Shown: in pieces, positions 4,942-64,000 of the stretch | How the letters are laid out: the number at the start of each line of letters is the position of its first letter | Numbering within the stretch: the first letter of the stretch is position 1 | Assembly (NCBI GenBank): GCA_965248055.1 | Contig: CBDFIJ010000004.1 | Span: 32,001 to 96,000, forward strand | Direction of reading: 5' to 3' | Length of the DNA stretch: 64,000 nucleotides | Origin: Candidatus Multivoradales bacterium | Lineage (GTDB): Bacteria; Acidobacteriota; Thermoanaerobaculia; Multivoradales; JAHEKO01 | Notes under the pieces: generated by a model | The model's input: the letters and a program-made list of their open reading frames with translations, nothing else | Told to the model about the DNA's origin: nothing | Databases searched by the model: none | Program-made: the position numbers and the translations under genes

Positions 4942-5412
4942 ATGCCCAGACGGCGCGAAATTACGAAACGAGAGGTTCTTCCTGACCCGTTGTACAACTC
5001 TCAACTGGTGACCAAGTTTGTCAACTTGATCATGTTAGATGGTAAGAAGACGGTTGCAGAGCGAATTCTCTACGACGCCCTCATTTTGATAGAGGAGCGT
5101 ACTGAAACCGATCCAATGAAGGTGTTTACCCGTGCGGTAGATAACGTCAAGCCGACGGTCGAGGTGAAATCCCGTAGGGTCGGTGGCTCGACCTATCAGA
5201 TTCCGGTTGAAGTACGACCGAGCCGACGTCTTGCCTTGTCGTTTCGTTGGTTGTTGGCAAGTGCCCGCAGTCGAGGCGAGAAGACGATGCGTGAACGGTT
5301 GGCTGCGGAGCTTCTAGAAGCTTCGGAGAGCCGCGGTGGTGCAGTGAAGAAAAAGGAAGATACTCATCGGATGGCCGAAGCCAACAAGGCTTACGCTCAT
5401 TACCGATGGTAG
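4942..5412 (+). CDS. rpsG: 30S ribosomal protein S7
   Basis: MPRRREI...[12 protein letters not shown]...[15 protein letters not shown]. Confidence 0.98.
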
Positions 5413-5472
5413 GAACTCGGAGGAGGCTGTCGTAACTCGTGGATTTCCGCAAGGCGCAACGGCAGTTTTATT

Positions 5473-48677: not shown

Positions 48678-50246
48678 TTGAGTACGTTTCCATTTTTATC
48701 CATTCGCGCCGCGCTGCTGGCGGTAGTGTTGTTTTTTATTGCCGGAACGATGTCGGCACAATCCGTGACCGTCGAGGACGGGGCGGTCCACCTGTCGTTG
48801 GAAGAGGCGGTCGCACTTTCCCTCGAACGCAACTTAGGGCTCAAAGTTGAACGCTTTCGTTTGCAGGAATCTGAGTGGGCCCTTTCTGGCAGCCAGGGGA
48901 TCTACGACCTCAACTTGACGGGTCGACTGTCTGCGTTTGACGAAGCATCCCCCTCGGCCTCCAATTTGGATGGTGCGGATATTCAGATCTCAGAGCAACA
49001 GGGATGGGTCCTGGGTTTGGAGCAGCTGGTGACAACCGGCGGTAGGCTCAACTTGGATTGGAACAATTCTCGATTTGAATCCAACTCAAGATTCGCCAGC
49101 TTGAATCCTCGCTACCGTTCCGACTTGGACCTGACCTTTACCCAGCCGCTGCTGCGAGACCTGGGAAAGGACAGCACGGACTACCGGATCAAGGTAGCGC
49201 GTAACAATCTTGAGATCTCCAAGGAGACTTTTGAACGCCAGGTCACCACCACGGTGAGCACCGCAAAGCAGCTCTACTGGAATTTAGTCGACGCCAAGCG
49301 CCAGCTTGAAGTCGACACCGATTCTTTGGGGCTCGCGCAGCGTTTGCACCAACAAAACGACATCAAGGTTGAAGTCGGCACGATGGCACCCCTGGAGCTG
49401 GTGCAAAGCAAAGTCGGTGTCGCAGAGCGGGACGAAGCGGTAATCCGTTCTGAAGCGGCGGTTTTCAATGCCGAAGACGCGTTACGCCAGTTTCTGAGCA
49501 TGGAGAGCGAGTACTGGGCGATGGCCATTGAACCGACCACCCCAGCGGAGACCGAGACCATGTCGATTGATGTCGATGCTGGCATCGCCGCAGCGCTGGA
49601 GTACCGTCCCGATCTGCGAACCCAGAGACTCTCGATCGACAATCTAATGCTAGATGAAGAATTCTATCTCAACCAGAGATTGCCGCGCCTCGATCTGTCA
49701 GCGACCTACGGCTACAACGGCCTGGGGGGTGACGTCACTAATCGTGATTTCTTTACCGGGGAGATCTTGGACCAGTCGTCCGGTAGTTACAGCGACGCTC
49801 TGAATCAAGTCACCGGCGGTGACTTCGATGGCTGGAATGTCGCCCTGAATTTGGTGATGCCAATTCAGAACCGATCTGCCGAAGCGCAATCCGCGATCTC
49901 CTCGATCGCCCGGGAGCGTGGTGAAGCAGAGTTGGCAGATCTGGAAGCGACGATCTCCGCTGAGGTACGACGAATCGCTCGTACCGTACAAACCGCCGCT
50001 GCCCTGATTGAGAGTACAACTGCCTCGCGAGGTCTGGCGGAAGAGAACCTGAGCGCTGAGGAAAAACGATTCGAGAACGGGCTCTCCACCAGCTACCAAG
50101 TCCTGGAGATTCAAGAGAATCTGACCCAGGCGCGCACCCGTGAAGTTCTCGCCATTACCGGTTATCGCAAAGCCTACGTCGAGTATCTAAGGGTCACCGG
50201 ACAGTTGCTGGAAGACGCCGGGATCGACGTGGGAACCGATCAGTAG
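48678..50246 (+). CDS. TolC-family outer-membrane efflux protein
   Basis: Signal peptide, LSLEEAVALSLERN, TQPLLR, LPRLDL, EKRFENGLST. Confidence 0.9.
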   Translation: MSTFPFLSIRAALLAVVLFFIAGTMSAQSVTVEDGAVHLSLEEAVALSLERNLGLKVERFRLQESEWALSGSQGIYDLNLTGRLSAFDEASPSASNLDGADIQISEQQGWVLGLEQLVTTGGRLNLDWNNSRFESNSRFASLNPRYRSDLDLTFTQPLLRDLGKDSTDYRIKVARNNLEISKETFERQVTTTVSTAKQLYWNLVDAKRQLEVDTDSLGLAQRLHQQNDIKVEVGTMAPLELVQSKVGVAERDEAVIRSEAAVFNAEDALRQFLSMESEYWAMAIEPTTPAETETMSIDVDAGIAAALEYRPDLRTQRLSIDNLMLDEEFYLNQRLPRLDLSATYGYNGLGGDVTNRDFFTGEILDQSSGSYSDALNQVTGGDFDGWNVALNLVMPIQNRSAEAQSAISSIARERGEAELADLEATISAEVRRIARTVQTAAALIESTTASRGLAEENLSAEEKRFENGLSTSYQVLEIQENLTQARTREVLAITGYRKAYVEYLRVTGQLLEDAGIDVGTDQ

Positions 50247-50309
50247 GCTCGACGATCCGGAGCCGGTAAACTGTGAAGTGTCCCGCTGAAATCGGGATCT
50301 AAGGAGGTT

Positions 50310-51008
50310 GTGATGACAGCGATTCAAAACTTTATCGGAGTGTTGAGTTCCCCCAGTAAGACTTTTGAGGCGATTCGCGCTAACCCCAAATGGGTCGTGG
50401 CCGCAGTGATCCTGATTGCGGTTGCGCTGGCGGGCCAGTTGATCGCTTTTCCCAAGATCGATTGGGAGGAGATCGCTAGAGTCCAAATTGAGGCGTCCAA
50501 TCGCCCAATGACCGAAGCGCAGATTGAGCAGGGCGTGGAAATGGGAGCCAAATTTGGATCATGGGCTGCACTCGGTACCGCGGTTCTGGGTTTCCCAATC
50601 GTGTGGCTGATTACCGCGTTACTGATGTGGGTGCTGATCCGGATGCTCGGCGGCCTGGACCTGAGTTACCCCCAGAGCCTCGCGACCACTATCTATTCCA
50701 TGGCTCCCTGGATCATCCACACTATTCTGTCCATCCCCTTGCTGTTGATGCGCAAGGAGATTTCCGCTGAGGAACTACAATCCGGTGGGGTACTCAAACA
50801 CGGCCTGGCTTCGTTTATTGACGCCGAAGGACCGATGCTGCAATTTCTCACCTCGTTCAATGTCTTCACCATTTGGACCGTGATCTTGATGGGGATAGGT
50901 TTTGCAATCGTCGGCAAGGTATCCAAGGGAAAAGCGTTTGGTGCCGTCCTCGCTGTCTGGGTGATCGGAATTCTGCTCAAGGTTGGAAGCGCCAGCTTGG
51001 GTGGCTAG
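50310..51008 (+). CDS. Yip1-family (YknW-like) membrane protein
   Basis: VLSSPSKTFEAI start, about 5 TM segments, inside a MacAB-like operon. Confidence 0.8.
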   Translation: MMTAIQNFIGVLSSPSKTFEAIRANPKWVVAAVILIAVALAGQLIAFPKIDWEEIARVQIEASNRPMTEAQIEQGVEMGAKFGSWAALGTAVLGFPIVWLITALLMWVLIRMLGGLDLSYPQSLATTIYSMAPWIIHTILSIPLLLMRKEISAEELQSGGVLKHGLASFIDAEGPMLQFLTSFNVFTIWTVILMGIGFAIVGKVSKGKAFGAVLAVWVIGILLKVGSASLGG

Positions 51009-51041
51009 TCGGCTGATCGACTGCAGCAGGAGCGCACGAAA

Positions 51042-52232
51042 ATGAAACGCACTTGGATCATCATTGGTGTGGTCGCGCTGTTAGCCGCGATCGTTGCCGC
51101 CAGCTTTTTTGGCAGCAATCGTAAGCCGAAAGGGGAGCGCGCCTATTTAGAGACGGTTGAGCGGCAGACCATCCAACGGGTGGTCAAGGCTCGGGGCGAA
51201 GTCGACCCTCGGGTCAAGGTCGATCTGTCTGCTCACGTAATTGCCAAGATCGAAACCCTGCATGTCAAGGAGGGCGATGACGTAGTCGCCGGTCGGCCGG
51301 TGGTCGATCTTGAGAAAGAAAACTTCGCCGCCAACCGCAAGCGAGCGGCTGCCGATCTACAGATTCAGCAGTCACGGTGGCGCCAGGCAGAAATCGAGGT
51401 CGAGGACCAGCAATTGAAGCTGGCCCGTGTTGAACGCCTATTTGCCGAGCAGATCTTTTCCCAAGGCGATCTGGAGGCGGCACAATTGGCGACTCGCTCG
51501 GCTGAACTACGGCGCGAACAGGCGCGCAGTGGAATCCTCCAGGCTCGCGCGACCCTCGACAAAGCCACCGACGACCTGGAGAAAACCACGATCTACGCGC
51601 CGATCTCTGGCCGGGTGATTCAGCTCAACGCCGAAGAGGGCGAGGTGGTGGTTTCCGGCACCATGAATAACCCTGCCTCGGTGATCGGCACTATCGCCGA
51701 TCTTTCCGAACTGCTGGCAGTGGTCGATGTTGATGAGACCGAAATCATCCATGTGCAACTCGACCAAGAGGCGGTTCTCCATGTCGACGCCAACCGAGAG
51801 GTTCGTTATCAGGGGCGAGTGGTGGAAATCGGCAATGCAGGTTTTGAACGCGCCGGCCAGCGCGATGTGACTTTCTTCGAGGTCAAGGTCCTGTTCACCA
51901 ATCCCGACGATGCTTTGAAAGCAGGCATGTCGGTGCGCGCGGAGATTGAGACCGCCGAAGTGGAGGACGCCTTGGTGGTTCCAGTGCAAGCGGTGATTCA
52001 GCGCAGTCTCGATGACTCTGACCAAGAGCAGTCGGTTGTTCTTACCGTGGTCTACGGCACCGTCAGCGAGGCCCCCATCACCACCGGAATTTCCAACATC
52101 ACCCACATCCAGGTTCTCAGTGGCGTGGAGGAAGGAGCCCAAGTGGTCACCGGACCGCACCGGGTGCAACGAGACCTCGAGGCGGGCGATTCGGTGCGAG
52201 AACGTCGTGGTGACGACGACGAGGACGAATAG
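51042..52232 (+). CDS. MacA-like periplasmic adaptor (MFP)
   Basis: N-terminal anchor, [27 protein letters not shown]. Confidence 0.92.
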
Positions 52233-52915
52233 TGTCGCTGATCGAACTCCGGGGAGTTCGCAAGACCTACCAGATGGGGCAGGAGACGATTCACGCCTTG
52301 GATGGAATCGACTTAGATATTGAAAACGGCGAGTACCTTGCCATCATGGGAGCTTCGGGATCCGGCAAGTCGACGATGATGAACGTGGTCGGTTGCCTGG
52401 ATCCACCGACTGAGGGCACCTACGTCCTCGATGGGGAGTCGGTAGACCAACTGTCCGATGAGGAGCTGGCCGGGATTCGCAACCGAAAGATCGGCTTTGT
52501 CTTCCAGACCTTTAACTTGTTGGCGCGCACCGACGCCCTGCGCAACGTCGAGTTGCCGTTGATCTATGCCGGACGCAAACGCTCCGAGCGGCGCGCGGCG
52601 GCGCGTAGAGCCCTAGAACAGGTCGGGCTGGGGGATCGTGTCGACCATCGTCCCAGTGAACTCTCTGGCGGCCAACGCCAACGGGTGGCTTTGGCGCGAG
52701 CCCTGGTCAACAATCCTTCGATCCTTCTCGCCGACGAACCCACCGGTAATCTCGACAGCGCTACCTCGGAAGAAATCATGGAGCTGTTTAGCAGCCTCCA
52801 CCAGCAAGGCAACACCGTGATCTTGGTGACCCATGAACACGACATCGCCGCCCACTGCCATCGAATCATCAGCTTGAAAGACGGCAAGGTTTTGAGTGAC
52901 GTGAGGAAGAGCTAG
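52232..52915 (+). CDS. MacB/LolD-like ABC ATPase
   Basis: [36 protein letters not shown]. Confidence 0.95.
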
Positions 52916-54135
52916 TGTTTCTCGAAGCCATCCGTTTGGCGCTCAGCGCTCTCTGGGCCAACAAGACTCGCGCGATCTTGACCATGCTCGGGATCTCGAT
53001 CGGCATCGCAGCGGTGATCGCAGTGGTTTCGGTGGTGCAGGGTCTGCAGTACTTCCTGGTCGGCCAAATTGAATCCCTGGGGGCCAACTTCATCATCATT
53101 CAGCCTAAGTTGGAGCAATTTCAAGGTCCGGGCATGGTCACCAAGCAGGTCAAGCTGACTTGGGAAGACGGGCAAATCATCCGTGACGAAGTTCCGGGAG
53201 TGGACGTCATCACGCCACAGATGTTTGGCAACCAACAAGCCAAGTACCGAGATCGCCAGCACTCAATGTTTGTCGTAGGCGTAAATCCAGAGTGGTCGGA
53301 GATGCACGACTTCAGTGTTGAGGTCGGCCGTTTCTTTACCAATACAGATCTCGCCGAGCGCCACAAAGTCGTTGTGGTGGGGCAGAAAGTGGCTGACGAG
53401 CTACGCCTAGGAGACGACCCAGTCGGCAAAGAAATCTACGTCGGCAACCTGTCGGCCACTGTAATCGGGGTGATGGAAGAAAAGGGCCAATCGCTCGGCA
53501 CAGACATGGACGACTTCGTATTCGCTCCCTTCGACACCGCCTTGCTAATCTTCGGCAAGGAAGCTGCCGACCAAGTGCAGTTGAGATTGCGCACCACCAG
53601 CGCCGAAAACGTTGAACAGGTCCGGGAAGACATAACCCGAGTGCTGCGCCGATTACACGGCCTGCAGGGAGATGCTGAGGACGACTTCACGATCCAACTA
53701 CAAGACGAAATCGTAGACCTCTTTTCCGGGGTGCTCAATGCGGTCACCGCGGTCGCTGCCGCCATTGTTGCGGTATCGCTGATTGTTGCCGGCGTCGGCA
53801 TCATGAACATCATGCTGGTGTCGGTCACTGAACGCACTCGCGAGATCGGTATTCGTAAGGCGGTGGGCGCGCGACGCGGCAACATCCTGTCGCAGTTTCT
53901 GGTCGAGGCGGTGGTGTTATCCCTGGTCGGGGGCGCGATTGGTATCGCCGTTGGCTACGGCCTTGGCGCATTGGTCATCGCCCTATTGCCGGTTAGCTTA
54001 CCGTCGGCTCACGTACCTTTGTGGGCGATCCTGACTGCTTTTGGTTTTTGCGCCCTGGTGGGTGTCTTCTTCGGTATTTATCCTGCTAGCAAGGCAGCCC
54101 GTCTGCACCCGATCGACGCTCTGCGCTACGAATAG
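52915..54135 (+). CDS. MacB/FtsX-like ABC permease
   Basis: LTMLGISIG, GIMNIMLVSVTERTREIGIRKAVGA, YPASKAARLHPIDALRYE. Confidence 0.95.
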   Translation: MFLEAIRLALSALWANKTRAILTMLGISIGIAAVIAVVSVVQGLQYFLVGQIESLGANFIIIQPKLEQFQGPGMVTKQVKLTWEDGQIIRDEVPGVDVITPQMFGNQQAKYRDRQHSMFVVGVNPEWSEMHDFSVEVGRFFTNTDLAERHKVVVVGQKVADELRLGDDPVGKEIYVGNLSATVIGVMEEKGQSLGTDMDDFVFAPFDTALLIFGKEAADQVQLRLRTTSAENVEQVREDITRVLRRLHGLQGDAEDDFTIQLQDEIVDLFSGVLNAVTAVAAAIVAVSLIVAGVGIMNIMLVSVTERTREIGIRKAVGARRGNILSQFLVEAVVLSLVGGAIGIAVGYGLGALVIALLPVSLPSAHVPLWAILTAFGFCALVGVFFGIYPASKAARLHPIDALRYE

Positions 54136-54252
54136 ACGGAAGCAACCCCTGGCGCTCGCCTGCTTGTGTCATTAGCAGGTCAGCGTTACCCTGACGTTAA
54201 CGATCCGCACTCAGCCGCTGCCACCGGCTTGAGTCAAAACAGGGAGCTGAGA

Positions 54253-55962
54253 ATGAAGAACTACAAATGGAGTCTTGGTCGTTTTGCGATCGGCGCACTG
54301 GTTTTGTCGCTGCTGTTGGCTGGGGCGCCAGCCGAAGGCCAGATCCATGACCCGAGGGCGATTGATTCCGATCCAGCTACCGCTCAGGAACCCATCGCCC
54401 CGAAACTGGGGGGTTTGAGTGATTACCACTTCGAGGTCACCACCTCGAACCCGGAGTCACAAGCTTTCTTTGACCAAGGTTTGCGTCTGACCTATGGCTT
54501 CAATCATTCCGAAGCTCTGCGAGCGTTCAAAGAAGCGATTCGGCTTGACCCCAACAACGCCATGGCCCACTGGGGTTGGGCGCTGGCTTTAGGACCCAAC
54601 CTCAACTTGCCGATGATGCCGGACGTCGTGCCCCAAGCGCTGGACGCGATGCAACGGGCTCAGAACTTGGCGTCTGGAGTGAGTGATCAAGAACGCGACT
54701 TCATCGCCGCTTTGGCGACTCGCTATACCGACGACCCCGAAGCCGACCGATCGAGTTTCGATCAGGCCTACGCATCGGCGATGGAGAAGTTGTTCGCAAA
54801 GTATCCAGACAGTGCTGACGCCGGAACCCTTTACGGGGCCGCAATCATGAATACCACTCCGTGGAACTACTGGAATCGAGACGGCAGCCCTAAGCCCGCT
54901 GCCGAGCGCATGTTGCAGGTATTTGAACAGGTACTTCAACTCAACCCCGATCATCCCGGAGCTTTGCACTATTGGATCCACGCGGTCGAGGCGGTGCATC
55001 CGAAACGGGCGGTGGAAGCCGCCGACCGCCTTCTTCCTTTGATGCCGGGTATCGGTCACATGGTGCACATGCCCTCGCACATCTACATGCGGGTCGGCCG
55101 CTATGCAGACGCCTACGACGCCAACTTTGCCGCAGTCGAGGCCGACGAGGACTACATCACCCAGTGCCGAGCCCAGGGCATGTATCCACTTAACTACTAC
55201 CCGCACAACCAGCACTTCCTAGCTTGGGCGGCGATGTTCCAAGGTCGCAAGGAGGAAGCGATGAAAGCCTCCAGAGCGGTCGCCAACGGCATCCCCAACG
55301 CGTCGACGAATGAGGGGCGCGGTGCAGTTTGGAACCTCTATGAGACCTTCCGCAGCCAACCGATGTACACCATGGGCCGCTTCGGTATGTGGCAGGAAGC
55401 TCTTCGTGAGCCCGCCCCCGAAGCTAGCGCCCTGTTCATGAATGGCGTTTGGCGATACGTGCGTTCGTTGGCGCATACTCACACTGGCAACCTGCGCAAA
55501 GCGCGCAAAGAACTCAAATACTTGCGCCAACTGCAGTCCCAGGTAGCAGCGCACCCGGATTACACCATCGGCTTTGGTTCCGCCACCACCATGCTCACCA
55601 TCGCCTCCGAAATCGCCGCTGGCGAGATTGCCGCGGCCAAAGGCGACTACACCGAAGCCTTGGCCCACCTGGAAACCGGCGTTCGTCTGGAAGACAGTTT
55701 GCTCTACAACGAACCCCCCGACTGGTATTTCCCGGTGCGCCACATCCTCGGCGCCGTACTTCTCGAAGCCGGCCGAGCCACCGAAGCCGAAGTCATCTAC
55801 TGGGCCGATCTGGCCAAGAATCCTGAGAACGGCTTCGCACTGTTTGGACTGGAAAGGGCCCTCAGAGCGCAGGGGAAAACCGATCTTGCTGACCAGACAG
55901 CAGAACGCTTCACGATAGCTTGGGCAAGCGCGGATGGAGCACTCAAGTCTTCGCGCTATTGA
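54253..55962 (+). CDS. Exported TPR-repeat protein
   Basis: Signal peptide; FDQGLRLTYGFNHSEA, HPGALHYWIH, HMVHMPSHIY, YNEPPDW; helical repeats. Confidence 0.85.
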   Translation: MKNYKWSLGRFAIGALVLSLLLAGAPAEGQIHDPRAIDSDPATAQEPIAPKLGGLSDYHFEVTTSNPESQAFFDQGLRLTYGFNHSEALRAFKEAIRLDPNNAMAHWGWALALGPNLNLPMMPDVVPQALDAMQRAQNLASGVSDQERDFIAALATRYTDDPEADRSSFDQAYASAMEKLFAKYPDSADAGTLYGAAIMNTTPWNYWNRDGSPKPAAERMLQVFEQVLQLNPDHPGALHYWIHAVEAVHPKRAVEAADRLLPLMPGIGHMVHMPSHIYMRVGRYADAYDANFAAVEADEDYITQCRAQGMYPLNYYPHNQHFLAWAAMFQGRKEEAMKASRAVANGIPNASTNEGRGAVWNLYETFRSQPMYTMGRFGMWQEALREPAPEASALFMNGVWRYVRSLAHTHTGNLRKARKELKYLRQLQSQVAAHPDYTIGFGSATTMLTIASEIAAGEIAAAKGDYTEALAHLETGVRLEDSLLYNEPPDWYFPVRHILGAVLLEAGRATEAEVIYWADLAKNPENGFALFGLERALRAQGKTDLADQTAERFTIAWASADGALKSSRY

Positions 55963-56094
55963 CCGCCTGTCGGTATCCGCACGAACGGTAATCTCTTTCC
56001 TCGGATCTTCGTAGGAGGGGCTTGTCCCCTCCCGAATTCGTAGGGACTAGAGTTCGCCTGTTGGAAATTCGTATCCTGTCACCGTATTTTTTCC
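55719..56094 (+). repeat. Repeat A, copy 1 (native TPR 3' end + REP hairpin + CCTGTCACC end motif)
   Basis: Matches 57712-58089 and 59902-60175; hairpin GTAG-GAGGGG-CTTGT-CCCCTC at 56011-56033. Confidence 0.95.
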
Positions 56095-56237
56095 TCTTCT
56101 CGAAGCTATTCACGGAAAACTCTTCGACTGGGTGCTCTGGCTTAACGCCGAAAGGCCCCACTGGAGCCACGGACAAAAATCACCACTACAGTACGTAGAT
56201 GACATACCGATCAGTGCATATGTCCTGGACGCATATA
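56095..56237 (+). pseudogene. 3' tail of an IS481-like transposase with terminal remnant
   Basis: KLFDWVLWLNAERPHWSHGQKSPLQY resembles the YN-x-x-RPH tail of rve integrases; followed by GTGCATATGTCCTGGACGCATA. Confidence 0.55.
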
Positions 56238-56334
56238 TTGAGTTGACAGGTTTAACGCCAACACATAGCCTTATTTTGGCAGAAACTATGACGACCAACA
56301 TGACCATCTTAAGCGTAGTGCTTTGAGGCGAGCC

Positions 56335-57483
56335 GTGACGAACCAATACCCGCACATAAGTTTTCGACGCACCTGGGGCTTGCCAGCAGGCGTTCACTAC
56401 CAGCTGGGAGAGTGCAGAGGGATCAACCGCGCGATCTCTGGAATGCCGATTCCCCCTCTTTATCACAGAGAACTTCTTCGGGTGTCCTTGCGAAAAGGTG
56501 CCATAGCCACAACAGCGATTGAGGGTAATAGCCTCACCGAGGGCGAGGTCAAGCGAATCGAAAGAGGTGAATCGCTCCCTCCAAGCAAGGCTTATCAGGA
56601 AAAGGAAGTAAAAAATGTTCTCGGTGCAATGAACATATTGTTCAATGAAGTGGTCGGCGAGAGACTAGGAGCCCCAATCACAGCCGACGTCATTCGCCGG
56701 TTCCACCACCTGTTAGGAAAAGACCTTGGTAAGCACTTTGACGCCATTCCAGGGAGATGGCGAGAAGATGCTCGGGTGGTGGGCTCATATCGATGTCCTG
56801 ACCATCGCATGGTGCCCAACTTAATCGATCAACTTTGTCAATGGCTACCAGAGTTTGGATACGGGTCCGAACAGCAGTCCTTCGAAGACGCTGTTATTCA
56901 AGCCGTCGTAACCCATGTATACATTGAATGGATACATCCATTTGGCGACGGAAACGGGAGAACTGGTCGCCTCCTTGAGTTTTACATTCTTTTGCGTGCT
57001 GGCAACCCCGACATCTCGTCCCATATTCTTTCAAATTTCTATAACGAAACCCGACCAGAATACTACCGACAAATAGGGCATGCATCGAGGAATGGAGGAG
57101 ACCTCACTGACTTCATTACCTATGCAGTCCAAGGCTTTAGAGACGGCCTGCTGGAAACGCTAGCGACAATTCAAGCCAGTGTCTTTGCAACGTCCTGGAA
57201 GAGCTATATCTATGACATGTTTGCAGGTGAGAAATACCGCAAAGATATATTCAAGAGGCGACGAGAACTTGCTTTGAATATGCCTCTCAATGGAGAACTT
57301 GCTGCTGAACAACTGGCTATTCTCACATCAAACCTCGCGCGCCGATACGCGAGGGTGACGGAGCGAACTCTAAAGCGAGATCTGTCTGCACTTGTTTCGC
57401 TTGGCCTAGTAGTAAAGTCCAAGGGTAAATATCGCGCAAATATTGCCGCACTGGAACCGAACCTACCGAAACAGCTCGACTAG
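56335..57483 (+). CDS. Fic-family protein with C-terminal HTH
   Basis: HPFGDGNGRTGR canonical Fic motif; TTAIEGN inhibitory-helix-like motif; TERTLKRDLSALV HTH; putative promoter TTGACA-17 bp-TAGCCT at 56243-56271. Confidence 0.93.
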   Translation: MTNQYPHISFRRTWGLPAGVHYQLGECRGINRAISGMPIPPLYHRELLRVSLRKGAIATTAIEGNSLTEGEVKRIERGESLPPSKAYQEKEVKNVLGAMNILFNEVVGERLGAPITADVIRRFHHLLGKDLGKHFDAIPGRWREDARVVGSYRCPDHRMVPNLIDQLCQWLPEFGYGSEQQSFEDAVIQAVVTHVYIEWIHPFGDGNGRTGRLLEFYILLRAGNPDISSHILSNFYNETRPEYYRQIGHASRNGGDLTDFITYAVQGFRDGLLETLATIQASVFATSWKSYIYDMFAGEKYRKDIFKRRRELALNMPLNGELAAEQLAILTSNLARRYARVTERTLKRDLSALVSLGLVVKSKGKYRANIAALEPNLPKQLD

Positions 57484-57674
57484 CTGACGCGAAGAATGAC
57501 TTATCAGATTCCTCTTGCCCTGTCGTGAGGGTGACTGAGCATCACTACGCTAATAAGCGGGTGCAGCATTAGCTCCTTGGTTTCAATTGCGAAGTAAACG
57601 CTGTTTTGGGGAGTCGCTCGAAAGTTGATGACGTGCAACCTGCCACCCCCGGCTCCCCACACAACCTCTAAGGG

Positions 57675-57706
57675 ATGGGGACACAATAAAAGGATTGTGT
57701 CCCCAT
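57675..57706. repeat. Perfect 13-bp inverted repeat at a cassette junction
   Basis: ATGGGGACACAAT-AAAAGG-ATTGTGTCCCCAT followed by TTTC, then repeat A copy 2. Confidence 0.9.
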
Positions 57707-57711
57707 TTTCT

Positions 57712-58089
57712 CGACTGGTACTTCCCGGTGCGCCACATTCTCGGCGCGGTGCTATGTGAAGCCGGCCGAGCCATCGAAGCCGAAGTCATCTACTGGGCCG
57801 ACCTAGCCAAGAATCCGGGGAATGGTTTCGCGTTGTCTTGACTAGAAAAGGCTCTCAGAGCGCAGTGGAAAACCGATCTTGCTGACCAGACGGCAGAACG
57901 CTTCGCGGATGCCTGGGCGGATGCCGATGGTGCCCTCAAGTCTTCGCGCTATTGACCGCCTGTCGGTAACCACACGAGCGGTAATCTCTTTCCTCGGATC
58001 TTCATAAGGGAGGGGCTTGTTCCCTCCCGAATTCATAGGGACTAGAGTTCGCCTGTTTGAAATCCGTATCCTGTCACCGCATTTTTTCC
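57712..58089 (+). repeat. Repeat A, copy 2 (orphan TPR 3' end, pseudogenic)
   Basis: About 80 codons colinear with the TPR end, internal TGA at 57839; same hairpin and end motif. Confidence 0.95.
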
Positions 58090-58301
58090 AGGCGCGTCGA
58101 TTTGGCGCTATGGAACTCCTACCATCAGAAGCTAGGCTATACTTACCTGAACCAGCAGTAGCGACTAGCTTTTTGGTGGCGAGCGAGGGATCGAGCGTCG
58201 GGGCTACCAACGGGTAAGGGCAATAAGGAGAATCGACCATGCCAAGCGCACCGAGTGACCTAAGAGCAGATTTGCCGAGCCGAGCAAGAGGTGGTGTCGA
58301 C

Positions 58302-59807
58302 ATGTCCGCTTGGACGCCGTCGTACGCAGGCTATCCTGGCGCGGTCATTAAGCAGTTCTTTGTCAACAAGGATGGTGAAACCAAGACGCGCACCATCAAG
58401 CACCTCATCTGGGGCGACTGGATGTTAGTCGGGACTAAGAAAAAGGGTGGTCTGGTTGAAGCCTACTCGCGCGGCAAACGCGGTTTTGTAGATCCCGCCA
58501 GCGTCACCAATGAACGTGTGCTTGAAGTGGTTTTCGTAGATATCGGCCAAGGGGATGGCTGCCTCGTCGTAACCCCGAACGACGAACACCTGGTTATCGA
58601 CGCCGGCGAGCACGACAACATGTACCGTTTCCTAAATTGGCGCTACGGACGTTTCAAGAACGATTTCGAATTCGACGCGCTCTTTGTCACACACCCAGAT
58701 CAGGACCACTACAAGGGCTTTAAGGAATTCTTCGATCTAACGGCGCACCCAGATGCCAAGCGAATTAAGTTCACGAATGTGTATCACAACGGAATCGTCG
58801 AACGAAAAGCCAAGCACTCGCTCGGTCCGAGGGTCAAGATTGACGGTAAGTCACACATCAAGGGGCTGGTTCAGACTGACGGCGATCTCGACGACTTCCT
58901 TTCCGTTGAATCGCGTTGGAAGGGCAAGAACTATCCGACATTGCTTAACAGCATGGTGCAGAGCGACAGGGTCGGCAACATCCGCTCGCTCTCCGCTGAA
59001 GACGGTTTCGTCCCTGGTTTTGAAGGCGGAAAAGACCTCTCGATTGAGGTTCTCGGTCCAGTTCTCACTCGGCACAATGGTGAGCCTTCGCTCCGATGGC
59101 TGTCGAGCGTCGGCAAGACCAAGAACGGCCATTCGGTGGTACTCAAACTCCAGTACAAGAACATCAGCATGATGCTGGGCGGGGACCTCAACATCCCGGC
59201 CGAACATCTGCTGCTTGCACATCACACCGGCCTAGAATCTCCTCCCAAGAGTGAAGAACACAAGACTCTAGTAGCAGCAGCGCGTAAGGTCTTCCAAGTT
59301 GATATCGCCAAAGCCTGCCACCACGGCAGCGCTGACTTCACCAGTATCTTTCTCGAAGCCCTCAACCCGATCGCAACGGTTATTTCTAGCGGGGACGACG
59401 AGTCCCACGCACATCCAAGGGCGGAGACGCTGGGGACAATCGGTCTCTTCTCGCGCGGCTCCCGCCCACTCATCTTCAGCACCGAGCTTGCCCGCTCGAC
59501 CAAAGAGCGCATCAAACATCCCTCAGTCGTTCGCGGCAAATTCACCGCAGCCAAGGACAGGCTCCTTGAGCTGCACGCCGACCCGAACGCCAAACAAAAA
59601 GACATCGACAAGGCCGAGCAACAGTTCAAAAAACTGGTCACGGAAATCGAACGTAGCGTCGCCGTCTACGGCGCAATCAACGTGCGCACAGATGGGCACA
59701 AAGTCCTCTTTGCGCAAAAAATCGAGCGAGGCTCTGGATGGGACACCTACCGGCTAGAGCCGCAGGGTAGCAATGAGGTTCTTGAGTACGTCGCCAAGCA
59801 CCACTAG
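58302..59807 (+). CDS. ComEC/Rec2-like metallo-beta-lactamase-fold hydrolase (soluble)
   Basis: DIGQGDG, IDAG, THPDQDHY, GGDL, HHGS, HAHP. Confidence 0.85.
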   Translation: MSAWTPSYAGYPGAVIKQFFVNKDGETKTRTIKHLIWGDWMLVGTKKKGGLVEAYSRGKRGFVDPASVTNERVLEVVFVDIGQGDGCLVVTPNDEHLVIDAGEHDNMYRFLNWRYGRFKNDFEFDALFVTHPDQDHYKGFKEFFDLTAHPDAKRIKFTNVYHNGIVERKAKHSLGPRVKIDGKSHIKGLVQTDGDLDDFLSVESRWKGKNYPTLLNSMVQSDRVGNIRSLSAEDGFVPGFEGGKDLSIEVLGPVLTRHNGEPSLRWLSSVGKTKNGHSVVLKLQYKNISMMLGGDLNIPAEHLLLAHHTGLESPPKSEEHKTLVAAARKVFQVDIAKACHHGSADFTSIFLEALNPIATVISSGDDESHAHPRAETLGTIGLFSRGSRPLIFSTELARSTKERIKHPSVVRGKFTAAKDRLLELHADPNAKQKDIDKAEQQFKKLVTEIERSVAVYGAINVRTDGHKVLFAQKIERGSGWDTYRLEPQGSNEVLEYVAKHH

Positions 59808-59901
59808 GCAAAAAGCCTAGCGGTGGTTGTGAACGTGGGACTTGCACCGCGCTCAAATTAGCAACCAATGGAGGCAAAAGAAAAATGAGAGCAGTATCGA
59901 C

Positions 59902-60175
59902 AATCCTCACAATCGCTTCGCACCGTTTGGACTGGAACAGGCCTCAGAGCGCAGAGGGAAAACCGATCTTGCTGACCAGACAGCAGAACGCTTCGCGGTA
60001 GCTTGGGCCGACGCCGATAGAGCCCTGCATTCTTCGCGCTATTGACCGCCTGTCGGTCACCACACGAACGGTAATCTCTTTCCTCGAATTTTCGTAGGAG
60101 GGGCTTGTCCCCTCCCAGATCCATAGTGACTAGATTCCGCCTGTTTGAAATTCGTATCCTGTCACCGTATTTTTC
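59902..60175 (+). repeat. Repeat A, copy 3 (shorter orphan TPR 3' end)
   Basis: NPHNRFAPFGLE...GKTDLADQTAERFAVAWADADRALHSSRY*; same hairpin (60094-60116) and end motif. Confidence 0.95.
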
Positions 60176-60274
60176 TCTCACTGACCGATTTTCCGCTTCG
60201 GTGGCACACGCAGATCAAGAGAGATCGAACGATCAACTCTACCTGTAGACTACTGATCCGCAGGGAGGTATTAC

Positions 60275-61564
60275 ATGCAGCTAGAACAGTTCTCGATTAG
60301 CGGACTTTTTGGAGGCAAGAATCATGAAATTGCATTTCCAATTCCGAATGAAGCTGACGCGGAACCCTCGCTTCTGATTATCCACGGTAAGAATGGGGTC
60401 GGAAAAACCACAATCCTACGGATGATTGCCGGATTAATGCGGCTGGATTTCGACTCGTTCCGTGATGTTCCGTTCGAGTCGGCCTCCCTAAGGTTCACCT
60501 CAGGTCAGACGATCTCTGTCAAGTTGCGCGAAAGAGGGAGGGGGAGAAAGCGTGCATTAAGTGTTGCATTTGACGAAATGAGTGTAGACCTTCATTCGAA
60601 GCACCATGGAGCGGCTGATGAAGGTGATACGGATCTGGTTAACACATTCCGAAAACAGTTCTTCGAAGCTACAAGCGCTATCAGTTTCGAATTTATCAAT
60701 ACACGCCGAGTTCGCGAACGATTCGAACGGAGTCAAGACTCCACTGATGTCTTGCGGGACGGCGTCGATCCCCGACTGTTGACTAGTCGGCACGGGCTTC
60801 GACTCCGAGCGCGTGGTTTAGTACACAGAGAGGAGGCAGCGCCGGAAAAGAAACTTGCTCTTCGCGTGAAGCGCTTCGTGCGAGATGCTCAAGTCGACTA
60901 CCGAGAATATTTTTCGACCACAGCCCCCGACCTTTTTCCGCGAATCCTGGAGCGCCTCGCTTCAACCGAAGAAGCGAATATCCAGCCACAGGATTTGCGC
61001 GAGCGGCTCGACCATATCCGTCGGCAAGACGAGGAGACATCACGGCTCGGACTTGGTCCTGACAAATGGGACTATGATCAACTCATTAGTCAACTAAACG
61101 ACTTGAGTAAGTCGCGACGTAAAGGACGGCTACAGGCGCTTGCAGCCCTCGACACCTACTCAGAATTCTTGGAATCGAGAGCTGCAGAAAGAAAACTGGT
61201 TGCGGATCGACTCCTTACGTTCGAGAAGCTAGTGTCGGAATTTTTTGTCGATAAGAGCGTGACCGTTGATCCAGCCGAAGGTTTGGTGATCACCGCAGAC
61301 TCAGGGGCACCCCTCACCGAACACCAACTCAGTTCTGGCGAGTTTCACTTGCTCTTCTTGATGGTGGCTGCCCTCAAGACCCGACGGCTTGGCACGGTGG
61401 TAGCTATCGACGAGCCTGAGATGTCGATGCACGTGGCTTGGCAGACGAAACTTGTACCTGCGCTCATAGAGTGTGCGTCAGGAGCTGAACCTTTGTTTAT
61501 CTTCGCCACACACTCACCAGATCTTGCGGCAGAATTTCCCGACGCAATGATCGATTTGAATTGA
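60275..61564 (+). CDS. ariA: ABC-type (AAA_15/AAA_21) ATPase, AriA-like sensor of PARIS
   Basis: GKNGVGKTT, LSSGE, IDEPEMSMH, ATHSP with a helical insert; GGAGGT RBS; adjacent to a DUF4435-like gene. Confidence 0.75.
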   Translation: MQLEQFSISGLFGGKNHEIAFPIPNEADAEPSLLIIHGKNGVGKTTILRMIAGLMRLDFDSFRDVPFESASLRFTSGQTISVKLRERGRGRKRALSVAFDEMSVDLHSKHHGAADEGDTDLVNTFRKQFFEATSAISFEFINTRRVRERFERSQDSTDVLRDGVDPRLLTSRHGLRLRARGLVHREEAAPEKKLALRVKRFVRDAQVDYREYFSTTAPDLFPRILERLASTEEANIQPQDLRERLDHIRRQDEETSRLGLGPDKWDYDQLISQLNDLSKSRRKGRLQALAALDTYSEFLESRAAERKLVADRLLTFEKLVSEFFVDKSVTVDPAEGLVITADSGAPLTEHQLSSGEFHLLFLMVAALKTRRLGTVVAIDEPEMSMHVAWQTKLVPALIECASGAEPLFIFATHSPDLAAEFPDAMIDLN

Positions 61565-61577
61565 AGAGTTCTCTCGC

Positions 61578-62411
61578 ATGATCAGACGAGCGCCGCAAGC
61601 GATTATCATGGCGCATCGTATGGATTCGGATAGAAGAGTTGTTTACGTGGAAGGCTCTCACGATGCCGCTTTCCTCAAGTGGCTAGTTGGGGCTCGGAAA
61701 CACCCTGACGCGCAGATTCGCGAGATTGGAACTGTGAAACTCGACGACGTGGGCGATGGCGGAGAACGCGGACGGCTTATTGGATTCGCTACTCTCTTGT
61801 CGGTGGCGAATTGCGCCAGAATTAGGTGTTTTGCGGATGCGGACTTTGATCGTTTGCTGAAACGAGAATGTCCGAAGTCTGTGTGGCTGACGGATGGACG
61901 AGATCTCGAAGGCTACGTGCTCAGAAACGAGTGCGTCGAAAAAGTGCTACTACTAGGTATTGGCCAGCATGCGGTTTCCGCCCGAGACATATTGAACGAT
62001 GTCCTCACGGTCGGCCGTCGGGTCGGAATCCTCCGAGTGGTCTCTGAGGTGGATGAACTCGCGCTACCCTTCGCGCGAACCAAACTCCAGCGTCACCTCA
62101 CTATGTCGCAAGGGCGAGTCAACTTCGCGCTGGAACCCTTTCTGCAAGCCCTACTTCAAAACGCTGGGACGAGCCTAGCAATGAAGAATAGAGTCCTGAA
62201 GAGAGTCGCAGAAGTCGCTGACGATTTAGTTGACGTGCCGGATATCCAGATTATCCACGGCAAAGATGCATTCTGCCTCATTGAAAAAGCGCTATCTCAA
62301 TTTGGGATAAGAAGGGGGGCAGAGGTGGGCAAGATGCTGTGGAGTAGCTTCGAGTCGCGATTTGTTGAGCGGGGATCGAATCTCGACCAAGTGCAAAGTT
62401 TCTTGGGCTGA
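61578..62411 (+). CDS. ariB: DUF4435 TOPRIM-fold protein, AriB-like effector of PARIS
   Basis: VYVEGSHD, DADFD, RDLEGY and HGKD motifs typical of DUF4435. Confidence 0.75.
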   Translation: MIRRAPQAIIMAHRMDSDRRVVYVEGSHDAAFLKWLVGARKHPDAQIREIGTVKLDDVGDGGERGRLIGFATLLSVANCARIRCFADADFDRLLKRECPKSVWLTDGRDLEGYVLRNECVEKVLLLGIGQHAVSARDILNDVLTVGRRVGILRVVSEVDELALPFARTKLQRHLTMSQGRVNFALEPFLQALLQNAGTSLAMKNRVLKRVAEVADDLVDVPDIQIIHGKDAFCLIEKALSQFGIRRGAEVGKMLWSSFESRFVERGSNLDQVQSFLG

Positions 62412-62489
62412 CCGCTCTGAACGGCAGGTCAAGACGATCCCTGGTAGCGAGAAGTCGAACGACTTCCACAGCCCATGTGGAACACCCAG

Positions 62490-62660
62490 CCCACTGCGAC
62501 TCGTTTGACTTTTGGGGAGTCGCTCTAGAGCAGTCGGCTAGCCTACTCGACGGCCCAATAGCTGTGTTGATTGATGTTTTAGGGGAGCCGGGGCAGGCTA
62601 CCGAGGCCCCCCCCTCCCAATAGCGGAGCAAATGATGTTTTTGGGGGAGTCGCTCCAACG
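62490..62660. repeat. Three degenerate direct repeats with a TTTT(N)GGGGAGYCG core, spaced about 62-68 bp
   Basis: Cores at about 62510, 62577 and 62638; related copies at 57604 and (inverted) about 57647. Confidence 0.6.
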
Positions 62661-62709
62661 CCGATGGCTATGCCATCGGCATCGACCGACGACCTCATTC
62701 GGCACCGAA

Positions 62710-62795
62710 TGGTGCCGGAGGGGGGAGTCGAACCCCCACACCCTTGCGGATAACGGATTTTGAGTCCGTCGCGTCTACCGTTCCGCCACTCCGGC
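62710..62795 (-). tRNA. tRNA-Leu(CAA)
   Basis: Reverse complement GCCGGAGTGGCGGAACGGTAGACGCG...CTCAAAA...long variable arm...GGTTCGACTCC...CGGCACCA. Confidence 0.96.
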
Positions 62796-62806
62796 AACCG
62801 AGCGGA

Positions 62807-62835
62807 ATCCTAGAAGCGGGGAGGGGGAGTGTCAA
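62807..62835 (-). promoter_or_regulatory. Sigma70 promoter of tRNA-Leu
   Basis: TTGACA, 17 bp spacer, TAGGAT on the minus strand. Confidence 0.75.
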
Positions 62836-62897
62836 ACCCGATTTTTGCCGAAGCTGAGGAAGTTGACGAGAGTGCATCTGCCAGAGCCAGGGTGGAG

Positions 62898-62926
62898 TTG
62901 ACATTTGTTGTTTTTTGAGTTATAAT
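62898..62926 (+). promoter_or_regulatory. Perfect-consensus sigma70 promoter upstream of carD
   Basis: TTGACA, 17 bp spacer, TATAAT. Confidence 0.85.
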
Positions 62927-63044
62927 GACCCCCTTAAACGTAAGAAAGCAAAAGACTTACGTTCTGACTAGAGATATTCCTCTACCGGTCGTTGGGGTCA
63001 AGTTTCCCAACTGGTCGGATCAGCGCAATCAAGGGAGTCGGTAG

Positions 63045-63638
63045 ATGGCAACATACAAAGTAGGGCAGAAAGTGGTGTACCCAAGCCACGGCGTGGGAGT
63101 GATCGACAAGGTGGAGAAAACGACGTTTGATGGGGTTGATGAAACGTTTTATTTCCTGCGTCTGTTTTCCAATGAGACGATGGTGATGATTCCGAAGCAG
63201 AATCTGGAATTGGTGGGGCTGCGCAAGCTGTGCTCGCGCAAGGATATTCGGGATCTGTTGAGTCTGCTTGAGGACGGCAACATCGACACTTACAAAGACT
63301 GGAAGGGTCGCTACAAGCAGAACCTGGACAAGATGAAGACCGGCGAGTTGGGTGAGGTGGCCCGGGTGCTCAAGAATCTACGTTTGGTGAGTACCAAGAA
63401 GAGCCTGTCGTTTCGGGAAAAGAAGATGTACGAACGGGCCAAGTACTTCATCGTCAGTGAAATCTCTCACGTCAACCGGATCGCTGAGGCGACGGCGGAG
63501 GCCAAGGTGGAAGAAGCACTGGAAACGACCATTACCAAACGCGAGCGTAAGCTGAAGAGAGCGGAAGCGAGAGCGGAAGCGAAAGCAGCCAAAGAGGAAG
63601 CAGCAAAAGCGGAAGCCAAAGCAGCGAAGGCGAAGTAG
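63045..63638 (+). CDS. carD: CarD/CdnL-family transcription factor with Ala/Lys-rich tail
   Basis: KVGQKVVYPSHGVG, VGLR, DWKGRYK (conserved Trp), LSFREKKM. Confidence 0.92.
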   Translation: MATYKVGQKVVYPSHGVGVIDKVEKTTFDGVDETFYFLRLFSNETMVMIPKQNLELVGLRKLCSRKDIRDLLSLLEDGNIDTYKDWKGRYKQNLDKMKTGELGEVARVLKNLRLVSTKKSLSFREKKMYERAKYFIVSEISHVNRIAEATAEAKVEEALETTITKRERKLKRAEARAEAKAAKEEAAKAEAKAAKAK

Positions 63639-63643
63639 TACCC

Positions 63644-63970
63644 TTGCCGAGAATCGTCGTTTGGATAGCGCTGCTGACAATCGCTTGGTGGTGGTTGCGG
63701 GCTAAGGCGCCTGCGAGCACCGCTCGAAGAGGTCGTTTCGGCGGCGCAACCGGACAGCGGGGCATGGGCCCGAGAGGGTCTGGCGAAGACTTGATTGCCT
63801 GTGCGACCTGTGGCGTCTACTTGCCACGTCAGCGAGCCCTGACGGAGCTCAGTGGGGCGTTCTGTTCTGCCGAGTGCCGAGATCATGTGCCGGAGAAGCC
63901 AAGCAACGACCCAGACCGCACCACCGATGCTCATCGCCCAGAGTCGAATCGGGAAACCGGAACCCAGTAA
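63644..63970 (+). CDS. Small membrane-anchored zinc-binding protein (PP0621-like)
   Basis: N-terminal TM segment; LIACATCGVYLP...FCSAEC. Confidence 0.7.
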   Translation: MPRIVVWIALLTIAWWWLRAKAPASTARRGRFGGATGQRGMGPRGSGEDLIACATCGVYLPRQRALTELSGAFCSAECRDHVPEKPSNDPDRTTDAHRPESNRETGTQ

Positions 63971-64000
63971 GCTGCTTCGGCATGCCTTCTTCGGAACCGC

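Follow-up and report, generated by a model that had tools for sequence, protein, structure and literature searches.

In the 64-kb window of Candidatus Multivoradales bacterium DNA analyzed here (GenBank assembly GCA_965248055.1, contig CBDFIJ010000004.1, positions 32,001 to 96,000), the interval between a core TPR-repeat gene and a tRNA-Leu(caa) gene holds an array of three co-oriented cargo units, each preceded by a copy of the TPR gene tail. The array was built by additive, ordered import that left displaced gene tails behind, and the joining point of the cargo lies at the terminus of a repeat of the type served by REP-associated tyrosine transposases (RAYTs; REP, repetitive extragenic palindromic sequence). 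Cargo arrived from related lineages in two or more successive imports, each of which left a displaced TPR tail and a 130-nt mosaic of palindromic units. We infer that the repeat end itself directed the joining. Our favored reading, held tentatively and at slightly less than even weight, is that the TPR-to-tRNA-Leu interval is an additive gene-acquisition hotspot in which cargo joins at a repeat end and the resulting units then stack through the shared arm. The focal genome (G000) is 3.4 Mb in size, with a main contig of 57% GC; coordinates prefixed C4 refer to its genome contig and all others to the window. Comparisons were made within a set of 45 family genomes, comprising G000 and 44 others (G002 enters the family counts as a non-matching row only), among them a same-genus relative (G001) and a genome with an intact RAYT-like gene (G011).

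A repeat search and a three-way alignment confirmed that the TPR tail plus about 130 bp is present three times, with unequal starts and one shared end, as the initial annotation of this DNA had described (Table 1). These copies, here called arms, start at different points in the TPR reading frame. All three end within 2 nt of each other at GTATCCTGTCACCG(T/C)ATTTTT, with the 17-mer of this end located at 56071-56087, 58066-58082 and 60154-60170. The conserved arm terminus is CACCGYATTTTT, and past the 17-mer the three sequences become unrelated within 2-6 nt. Identity to copy 1 was 86% in the first 300 nt and 94% in the last 81 nt of copy 2, and 88% in the last 81 nt of copy 3. The mosaic of arm 1 contains a long hairpin around GGAGGGGCTTGTCCCCTCC, of a type with 16 genomic occurrences. 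The agreement of the three arm ends to within 2 nt, with unrelated DNA after each, bears out the earlier proposal that cargo was joined at one defined motif. Tandem modules of 130-230 bp with gene tails also occur elsewhere in G000.

We compared the coding parts of the arms. Between copies 1 and 2 (80 codons) we found 22.5 synonymous and 13.5 non-synonymous differences, giving a synonymous divergence (dS) of 0.56, a non-synonymous divergence (dN) of 0.078 and a dN/dS of 0.14. For this pair neutral decay was rejected (P = 3e-7), and so was the scenario of a local duplication after which one of the copies evolved as a pseudogene throughout (P = 8e-4). Because the differences are mostly synonymous, at least one arm (copy 2) is best placed as the tail of a functional TPR gene of another lineage that arrived together with cargo, which argues that the array grew by serial import and not by local duplication. 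Analysis of copies 1 and 3 (48 codons) gave a dS of 0.19, a dN of 0.13 and a dN/dS of 0.69, values compatible with in-place decay of a closely related allele. The right ends of units 1 and 3 each include a short stretch copied from the tRNA-Leu flank. These data support the description of the locus as an integrase-free additive stack of 'homology arm plus cargo' units between the TPR gene and tRNA-Leu.

The motif at the arm ends points to RAYT/REP systems, on which Nunvar in 2010 and Bertels and Rainey in 2011 reportedly published. Judged from the sequences compared here, it is the terminal repeat, of REP or terminal inverted repeat (TIR) type, of a RAYT-like Y1 HUH transposase family with members across Acidobacteriota. 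Within G000 the 17-mer was confined to three loci, namely the TPR array, locus B (C4:1,102,649-1,109,973) and locus C (C4:2,167,076-2,171,031). The genome contains 14 copies at up to one mismatch; at up to three mismatches there were 22 genomic matches, 18 of them within the three loci, compared with 4-11 for each of five shuffled 17-mers. At loci B and C the motif occurs mostly as inverted pairs, CGGTGACAGGATAC-N28-70-GTATCCTGTCACCG, which fold into long hairpins. A single repeat unit lacks self-complementarity, and hairpins form only where two units are inverted relative to each other, which fits the TIR class of Di Nocera better than a classical REP, a short palindrome with a GTAG tag. Among the family genomes, 25 of 45 carried the motif, often in the form GTAGCCTGTCACCG, and a reversed-pattern control gave 0 matches in all 45. 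A GTAG variant is present in relatives, where G000 has GTAT. When 185,579 species genomes were scanned, paired copies were found, among the matches listed, in records of Thermoanaerobaculia, Ca. Multivoradales and Bryobacterales; isolated single matches in unrelated phyla are in line with chance, which by a rough estimate would yield a few hundred matches in 596 Gb.

Locus C contains a gene for a predicted Y1 HUH transposase (Pfam Y1_Tnp), in which the HUH motif and the catalytic Tyr region (MPNHVHII and RYVLLNPVRAGLV) are read across a one-base frameshift. This gene is 60-63% identical to the intact 219-aa gene of G011, which matched Pfam Y1_Tnp (1.3e-8; 35.5 bits against a cut-off of 23) and the NCBIfam model for REP-associated tyrosine transposases, NF047646 (5.1e-19; 68.6 bits, below the 80-bit equivalog cut-off). 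The putative enzyme is classed here as a RAYT relative and not as an equivalog. RAYT-like orthologs were identified in 14 of the 45 family genomes. The motif lies inverted upstream of the start codon at 9 of 18 ortholog loci (at -57/-58 in seven, and at -76 and -87 in two), and seven of these nine also have a direct copy 3' of the gene. The nine loci with no upstream motif are more distant paralogs (≤58% identity). Across the RAYT loci of seven genomes, the gene was common and the flanks were not.

The consensus terminus of the repeat, ...CACCGTATTT(TT)CTCT, is found at locus B site 1, locus C copy 1 and arm 3, and coincides with the arm ends. Locus C also contains a 151-bp, 99% identical duplication, consisting of the last ~46 nt of the RAYT frame plus a hairpin, that ends at the same terminus. 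The copy lies 3.7 kb from its source, and the duplication brackets the gene for a 415-aa protein, an HTH_37/Gp49 (HigBA-like) pair and the RAYT gene. The inverted repeat upstream of the RAYT gene is directly abutted, on its outward side, by a C-terminal remnant of an IS30-type transposase (IS, insertion sequence).

Several further observations were made at repeat loci. The toxin open reading frame (ORF) of the HigBA-like pair in C4:2165980-2170559 is 228 aa long, with the Gp49 domain at residues 129-220. The 122-, 245- and 415-aa proteins encoded beside the RAYT gene had no Pfam or PADLOC match, and the last two also had no NCBIfam match. Locus B has four hairpin pairs among mostly core genes; two of the pairs are separated by the starts of paralogous genes for small glycine-rich membrane proteins, and the third adjoins a G000-specific insert with a PQQ-propeller gene, a 138-aa ORF and an IS256 element. 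In another genome (G024, locus L027, C13:297001-310000), IS110-family elements present as 99.6% identical copies adjoin pairs of the motif repeat, which fits REP-targeting by IS110.

Profile searches confirmed that unrelated, co-oriented cargo follows each arm, encoding a Fic protein, an MBL-fold hydrolase, and an ATPase with a partner. The GC content of the cargo is 50-55%, compared with 57-59% in the flanks. Cargo 1 has the Fic fold, the HPFx(D/E)GNGR motif and a full-length match to the PADLOC model of SoFic, and is a predicted defense protein; its score against the NCBIfam equivalog was 49.7, short of the cut-off of 550. The N-terminal MBL part of cargo 2 matches the LmuA, DRT and Avs1a models. 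Cargo 3a matched the PADLOC AriA models (3e-21 and 6e-20), and PtuA and other ABC-ATPase models match it too. In PARIS systems the partner of AriA, AriB, is a DUF4435/TOPRIM protein. Cargo 3b had no direct match in Pfam (to E ≤ 10), PADLOC, NCBIfam or the PDB sequences. The label 'AriA/AriB-like pair' given earlier to these two genes, which for the partner runs through its DUF4435-carrying homologs (Table 1), is thus fair but unproven.

Table 1. Features of the TPR-to-tRNA-Leu interval, in window coordinates.
Feature	Position	Strand	Evidence or detail
TPR-repeat gene, 598 aa, core	54166..55962	+	Pfam TPR_2/TPR_11; G001 ortholog with 77% amino acid identity
Arm copy 1: live TPR tail (last 244 nt of coding sequence) and 130-nt palindromic-unit mosaic	55719..56094	+	Repeat search, three-way alignment
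REP/TIR motif GTATCCTGTCACCGTATTTTT, copy 1, the fixed end of the arm	56071..56091	+	Motif scans
IS481-family remnant, last ~140 nt, sense	56098..56249	+	blastn, ~12 genomic copies at 85-89% identity
Cargo 1: Fic-domain protein, SoFic-like	56323..57483	+	Pfam Fic 4.7e-17; PADLOC SoFic 2.6e-58, residues 26-375; HPFGDGNGR at residue 205
tRNA-Leu flank-motif copy TTTTGGGGAGTCGCTC, right end of unit 1	57604..57634	+	16/16 nt identical to 62510-62525
Hairpin GGGGACACAAT-AAAAGG-ATTGTGTCCCC then T-run; second palindromic repeat family	57674..57706	+	Lies 7 nt 5' of arm copy 2
Arm copy 2: displaced tail of the TPR gene (80 codons with one stop) and 130-nt mosaic	57712..58089	+	Motif at 58066-58082
Cargo 2: MBL-fold hydrolase, 522 aa	58239..59807	+	Pfam Lactamase_B 8.4e-8
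Arm copy 3: displaced tail of the TPR gene in a more decayed state (48 codons with 1-nt indels) and 130-nt mosaic	~59902..60177	+	Motif at 60154-60170
Cargo 3a: ABC-type ATPase, AriA/PtuA-like	60275..61564	+	Pfam AAA_21/AAA_15; Walker A GKNGVGKT
Cargo 3b: 277-aa partner, distant DUF4435 (AriB-type) relative	61578..62411	+	10 of 93 homologs carry PF14491; 2 named DUF4435
Reiterated right-boundary module	62510..62670	+	Flank-motif copies at 62510, ~62578 (degenerate) and 62640 (native)
tRNA-Leu(caa), right-hand core boundary	62710..62795	-	ARAGORN; Rfam tRNA 60.8 bits

At the left boundary, the internal break of the IS481-family remnant sits 4 nt past the end of arm 1. The full element is 1.09 kb, encodes a 352-aa transposase (NCBIfam IS481, 6e-52) and has ~10 intact genomic copies. 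At the right boundary, all copies of the flank motif TTTTGGGGAGTCGCTC (57604, 62510, ~62578 and 62640) begin at one same point, mirroring the left boundary, and the native copy is conserved in G001. A 12-mer of this motif, GGGGAGTCGCTC, occurs four times in the genome, three of them in the array region. The second palindromic family comprises ~70 hairpins in G000, with 143 genomic arm matches and 19 further G000 matches to the hairpin at 57674-57706; none was found in the 44 other family genomes, nor was any match there to the right end of unit 1 (57484-57711). A third family of small hairpins, GGAGGGG-N3-7-CCCCTCC, was present at 16 genome sites (56014-56032, 60097-60115 and 14 others) compared with 0-3 for scrambled stems, and includes members in the repeat clusters at C4:1,041,361 and 1,044,457, where gene tails recur. 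In an Rfam scan of 55000-64000, the tRNA alone scored above the gathering threshold. The DNA 5' of the TPR gene (48678-54135) carries an efflux-type operon encoding an outer-membrane factor, a Yip1-domain protein, an HlyD-type adaptor, an ABC ATPase and a MacB/FtsX permease; the permease gene, the sole part of the operon compared, is kept in G001. Contigs C1-C3 of the G000 assembly (14.8-28.4 kb, 39-43% GC compared with 57% for the main contig) could be foreign DNA, plasmids or binning errors, and C3 has one reverse-transcriptase match.

Comparison with G001 revealed that the content of the interval varies in the closest relative, as expected of a hotspot in the initial annotation. The TPR-to-tRNA-Leu(caa) interval is 1.7 kb in G001, with other genes, compared with 6.7 kb in G000. 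DNA similarity between the two stops at the TPR stop codon (55965) and resumes at 62645, in the tRNA-proximal flank beginning GGGAGTCGCTCC. Neither the motif nor the RAYT gene was detected in G001. The tail-proximal 130-nt mosaic and the motif are, on this comparison, specific to the G000 lineage. G001 also has ~1.85 kb between tRNA-Leu and carD (5077-6948 of its locus, reverse-complemented) compared with 250 nt in G000, a second variable spot that lies across the tRNA gene from the array.

We also examined TPR loci and repeat loci outside this pair. No relative closer than G001 turned up: the best identity among 80 metagenome TPR loci was 63%; one of these loci (L106) has a one-mismatch motif far from the TPR gene, and another (L032) is a split match. 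Among 231 loci (1.17 Mb), the cargo homologs found beside a repeat elsewhere amounted to one Fic gene (25.6% identity), an anecdote and not a pattern. That gene, in an Acidobacteriaceae record (L144:1278-3393), stands back-to-back with a RAYT ortholog and its upstream repeat and starts 255 nt beyond the terminus, loosely paralleling arm 1. PADLOC gave no match for nine ORFs of loci B and C.

Whole-genome profile searches identified 7 matches to the tyrosine recombinase family PF00589, 8 to the resolvase family PF00239, 14 to the Y1 transposase family PF01797 and 2 to the reverse transcriptase family PF00078. None of these matches lies inside the array, confirming that no integrase, recombinase or reverse transcriptase is encoded there. 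The nearest PF00589 match (C4:19218-19724) is ~68 kb from the array, with none in the window, and no recombinase was found at any of the three motif loci. The term 'integrase-free' used for the array therefore stands as far as its own genes go and needs qualifying in one respect: the motif is the predicted terminus of a RAYT-like Y1 HUH repeat, so a recombinase connection exists. No word of 11 nt or more is shared between tRNA-Leu and 55001-62700, and a tRNA-targeting integrase thus does not explain the junctions; this candidate was rejected. The attC sites of integrons carry the boxes R'' (RYYYAAC) and R' (GTTRRRY). An integron or a cluster of attC sites lacking integron-integrases (CALIN) was likewise rejected, with no intI nearby and no GTTRRRY in the terminus CACCGYATTTTT; the terminus and the hairpin arms elsewhere, CGGTGACAGGATAC and GTATCCTGTCACCG, confirm the earlier statement that attC R-boxes are lacking. 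A dif/Xer-type site was rejected by inspection alone.

The junctions are also reproduced in other assemblies. Contigs that another assembler built from four runs of a single sample span all junctions between arm and cargo, in either order, including 57711|57712 and 59901|59902. Depth at the junctions is even (~45/44/40 in run X1), and contig breaks are confined to stretches identical between arms, which speaks against the assembly artifact that had been named as a possible refutation. This sample is probably the source sample, so the contigs are not independent. Loose contig ends at 58082 and 60176 are locus B contigs that share the motif. No joints, circles or deletions were seen in the contigs of the four runs; contigs cannot show rare forms and are silent on excision.

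A sequence of events consistent with these data begins at an empty site. In the ancestor, the repeat terminus ...CACCGTATTTTT probably abutted GGGGAGTCGCTCC: since the TTTTGGGGAGTCGCTC copies share one start, mirroring the left boundary, the empty site may have read ...CACCGTATTTTT/GGGGAGTCGCTCC. A nick specific to the REP end, followed by strand transfer, would have opened this site, catalyzed by a RAYT-like enzyme acting in trans or by another activity on that end. The repeat terminus would then be the actual joining point for cargo, with unrelated cargo joined at the opened terminus in different lineages. Occupied loci would subsequently have moved between relatives, integrating through the shared TPR-tail arm and keeping the old cargo behind the new, by a Campbell-type route, by homology-facilitated illegitimate recombination (HFIR) or through recombination of one REP terminus with another. 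Because the RAYT gene of G000 is frameshifted, the array has probably become static. In a stronger form of this model, the terminus of a RAYT-type repeat would be an attachment point at which an HUH single-strand DNA enzyme joins arbitrary cargo, making the locus an integron-like, integrase-free capture platform whose cassettes are bounded by 'gene tail plus repeat' arms; we consider this stronger form quite unlikely.

A number of findings weigh against repeat-end joining. The RAYT gene of G000 carries the frameshift just mentioned, and neither enzyme activity nor a circle or an empty site was seen. The arms hold only one half of the inverted pair, so that the usual hairpin substrate is missing there, and the 'cargo end | TPR-tail start' junctions do not fall at the motif repeat. 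The repeats of locus B lie within core DNA that otherwise keeps its synteny, and the G000-specific insertion at this locus begins away from the repeat terminus. Along the three arms, the variant patterns interleave without forming blocks or a clean crossover and favor neither a crossover nor a site-specific model. None of 85 TPR loci (80 from metagenomes and 5 from relatives) had the motif near the gene or a spare tail, which leaves the case so far unique to the lineage. In other genomes, arrays of the repeat consist largely of simple hairpin copies set between genes that lack annotation; when 24 of their ORFs were analyzed with PADLOC, a single match was obtained, to a TIR-domain protein, a result that gives no support to a dedicated 'defense-cassette system'. 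Finally, a blastx comparison of 156 distinct repeat termini from other genomes with five transposases revealed few that abut an IS and no common pattern.

The best-placed competitor of repeat-end joining is plain homology-anchored displacement, in which the TPR tail pairs on one side and illegitimate joining occurs on the other (by HFIR or through a Campbell circle), the repeat being a bystander that marks the end of the shared DNA. The model has been published for T6SS effector-immunity arrays (T6SS, type VI secretion system) and Rhs orphans, and HFIR is proposed for sequential displacement in the account of T6SS/Rhs arrays given there (Kirchberger 2017, PMC5361080). The array displays the features of an HFIR-type displacement array, with displaced anchor copies, variable arm starts, an arm (copy 2) that is foreign by dN/dS and no site-specific recombinase; pieces of both core flanks are retained, and other gene-tail duplications are present in the same genome. 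Displacement leaves unexplained, however, that the starts of three different cargos agree to within 2 nt on a point that is also the consensus end of a mobile repeat family, that the 99% identical duplication of locus C ends at the same terminus, and that truncated IS interiors abut two such termini. We regard it as possible, if somewhat unlikely. It is distinctly improbable that the arms were themselves the mobile entity, as aberrant one-ended RAYT products with their fixed end at the terminus, copied from the TPR locus into a contiguous island in the manner of IS91/ISCR elements or REP clusters. The 'RAYT tail plus repeat' copy at locus C and the short gene-tail modules in other G000 repeat clusters would fit such products. 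Against this, copy 2 diverged under purifying selection and departs from the in-genome copy model, barring a later replacement of the live TPR allele; no target sequence is common to the three insertion points, and the IS remnant right after the native arm and the flank-motif copies are left unexplained.

The remaining alternatives carry little weight. Accretion of integrase-less units resembling cis-mobilizable elements (CIMEs), driven by a tyrosine or serine recombinase in trans with its attachment site in the arm or in the tRNA-Leu flank motif, is very improbable, even though the PF00589 and PF00239 matches in the genome provide candidates and a perfect 16-nt direct repeat, TTTTGGGGAGTCGCTC, brackets 57604-62525 beside the tRNA gene. 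The three motif loci encode no recombinase, the array has no tRNA-Leu fragment, the differing arm starts are unlike a fixed crossover core, and the motif is not an 11-6-11 imperfect palindrome (by inspection alone). Hardly probable at all is local tandem duplication of 'tail plus repeat' modules with later cargo insertions and a final replacement of the live TPR allele by homologous recombination. Such a history would suit the decay-like divergence of copy 3 from copy 1 and the tandem gene-tail modules elsewhere in the genome, but it requires an extra allele replacement for copy 2 and still needs three separate insertions at the repeat terminus. We give a negligible chance to an assembly artifact that concatenated strain variants or to a classical integron or CALIN: the genome was probably assembled from a community sample and its four runs come from one sample, yet the junction-crossing contigs and their even depth speak against an artifact, as the missing intI and GTTRRRY do against an integron.

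We compared the locus with systems that accumulate genes in similar ways. Integron arrays and CALINs share with it co-oriented, promoter-proximal cassettes, a recurring separator that resembles a recombination site and additions at the front. They differ in that the array described here has no IntI and no attC R''/R' box, its recurring unit holds a gene tail, and its candidate cognate enzyme is an HUH single-strand nuclease and not a tyrosine recombinase. Accretion of CIMEs and integrative and conjugative elements at the 3' end of fda in streptococci also yields integrase-less units, bounded by gene 3'-end repeats and stacked in tandem. There, however, a known integrase uses the repeats as attachment sites and the crossover is fixed; no such integrase or core was found here. 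Sequential displacement arrays (T6SS effector-immunity, Rhs and contact-dependent inhibition, CDI), in the features that Kirchberger 2017 (PMC5361080) sets out, have a conserved upstream anchor, new modules beside the anchor with old ones shifted downstream, leftover gene 3' pieces, foreign modules and no integrase, all as in our array. In contrast to those arrays, the variable part here is not fused to the anchor gene and starts 130 nt past its stop codon, at a transposase-associated repeat terminus; the cargo is of defense type instead of toxin tips and immunity genes, and bits of the right flank are reiterated too.

Similarities also extend to repeat and defense loci. REPtrons and TIRtrons, as outlined by Di Nocera 2013 (PMC3733652), consist of a RAYT-like gene between inverted copies of a moderately abundant dispersed repeat, with a distinct group in Acidobacteria. 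Features common to them and the present family are a Y1 HUH gene between inverted repeats, dispersed single or paired copies (the pairs 28-70 nt apart), a GTAG/GTAT tag, a patchy distribution across relatives and clusters that reiterate flanking DNA. The present family differs in its low copy number, its non-palindromic, TIR-like 14-17-mer, RAYT loci that are not syntenic between genomes and a repeat terminus that coincides with kb-scale cargo junctions. Core defense hotspots are described as additive islands that arise from multiple discrete integrations (Johnson 2023, PMC10250203), and the tRNA-side hotspots of that account resemble the locus in their variable defense cargo, fixed core flanks including a tRNA and lack of a single mobile-element type; the locus described here is far smaller (6.7 kb), and its arm scars reveal the order of events and the joining point. 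REPs have been described as insertion hotspots for IS elements (Tobes & Pareja 2006), and Pseudomonas REPs, in the account of Loper 2012, mark old, stable DNA with mobile elements in REP deserts, the opposite of the locus here. The architecture, which had been suggested to be possibly undescribed, has published analogs in sequential displacement arrays and in REP clusters that reiterate flanking DNA. No paper was found that ties a RAYT/REP terminus to gene-cargo junctions, in a literature search that did not extend to subscription journals or supplements.

Taken together, the structure of the locus is real and well resolved. The locus is a variant of accretion by displacement that shows an unexpected connection, accessible to experiment, with the end of a REP/RAYT-type repeat. 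How integrase-free defense hotspots arise is an open question, and here the scars remain legible: they record additive, ordered import and a joining point defined at single-nucleotide scale. If the repeat end is not causal, the locus would be a clean, non-toxin example of displacement-type accretion, beyond the Rhs, CDI and T6SS loci. If it is causal, it would give RAYT-like enzymes a concrete genomic role and provide a testable single-strand DNA joining reaction. Should the capture-platform model prove true, this would be the first gene-acquisition role for the REP/RAYT class, the function of which is still debated.

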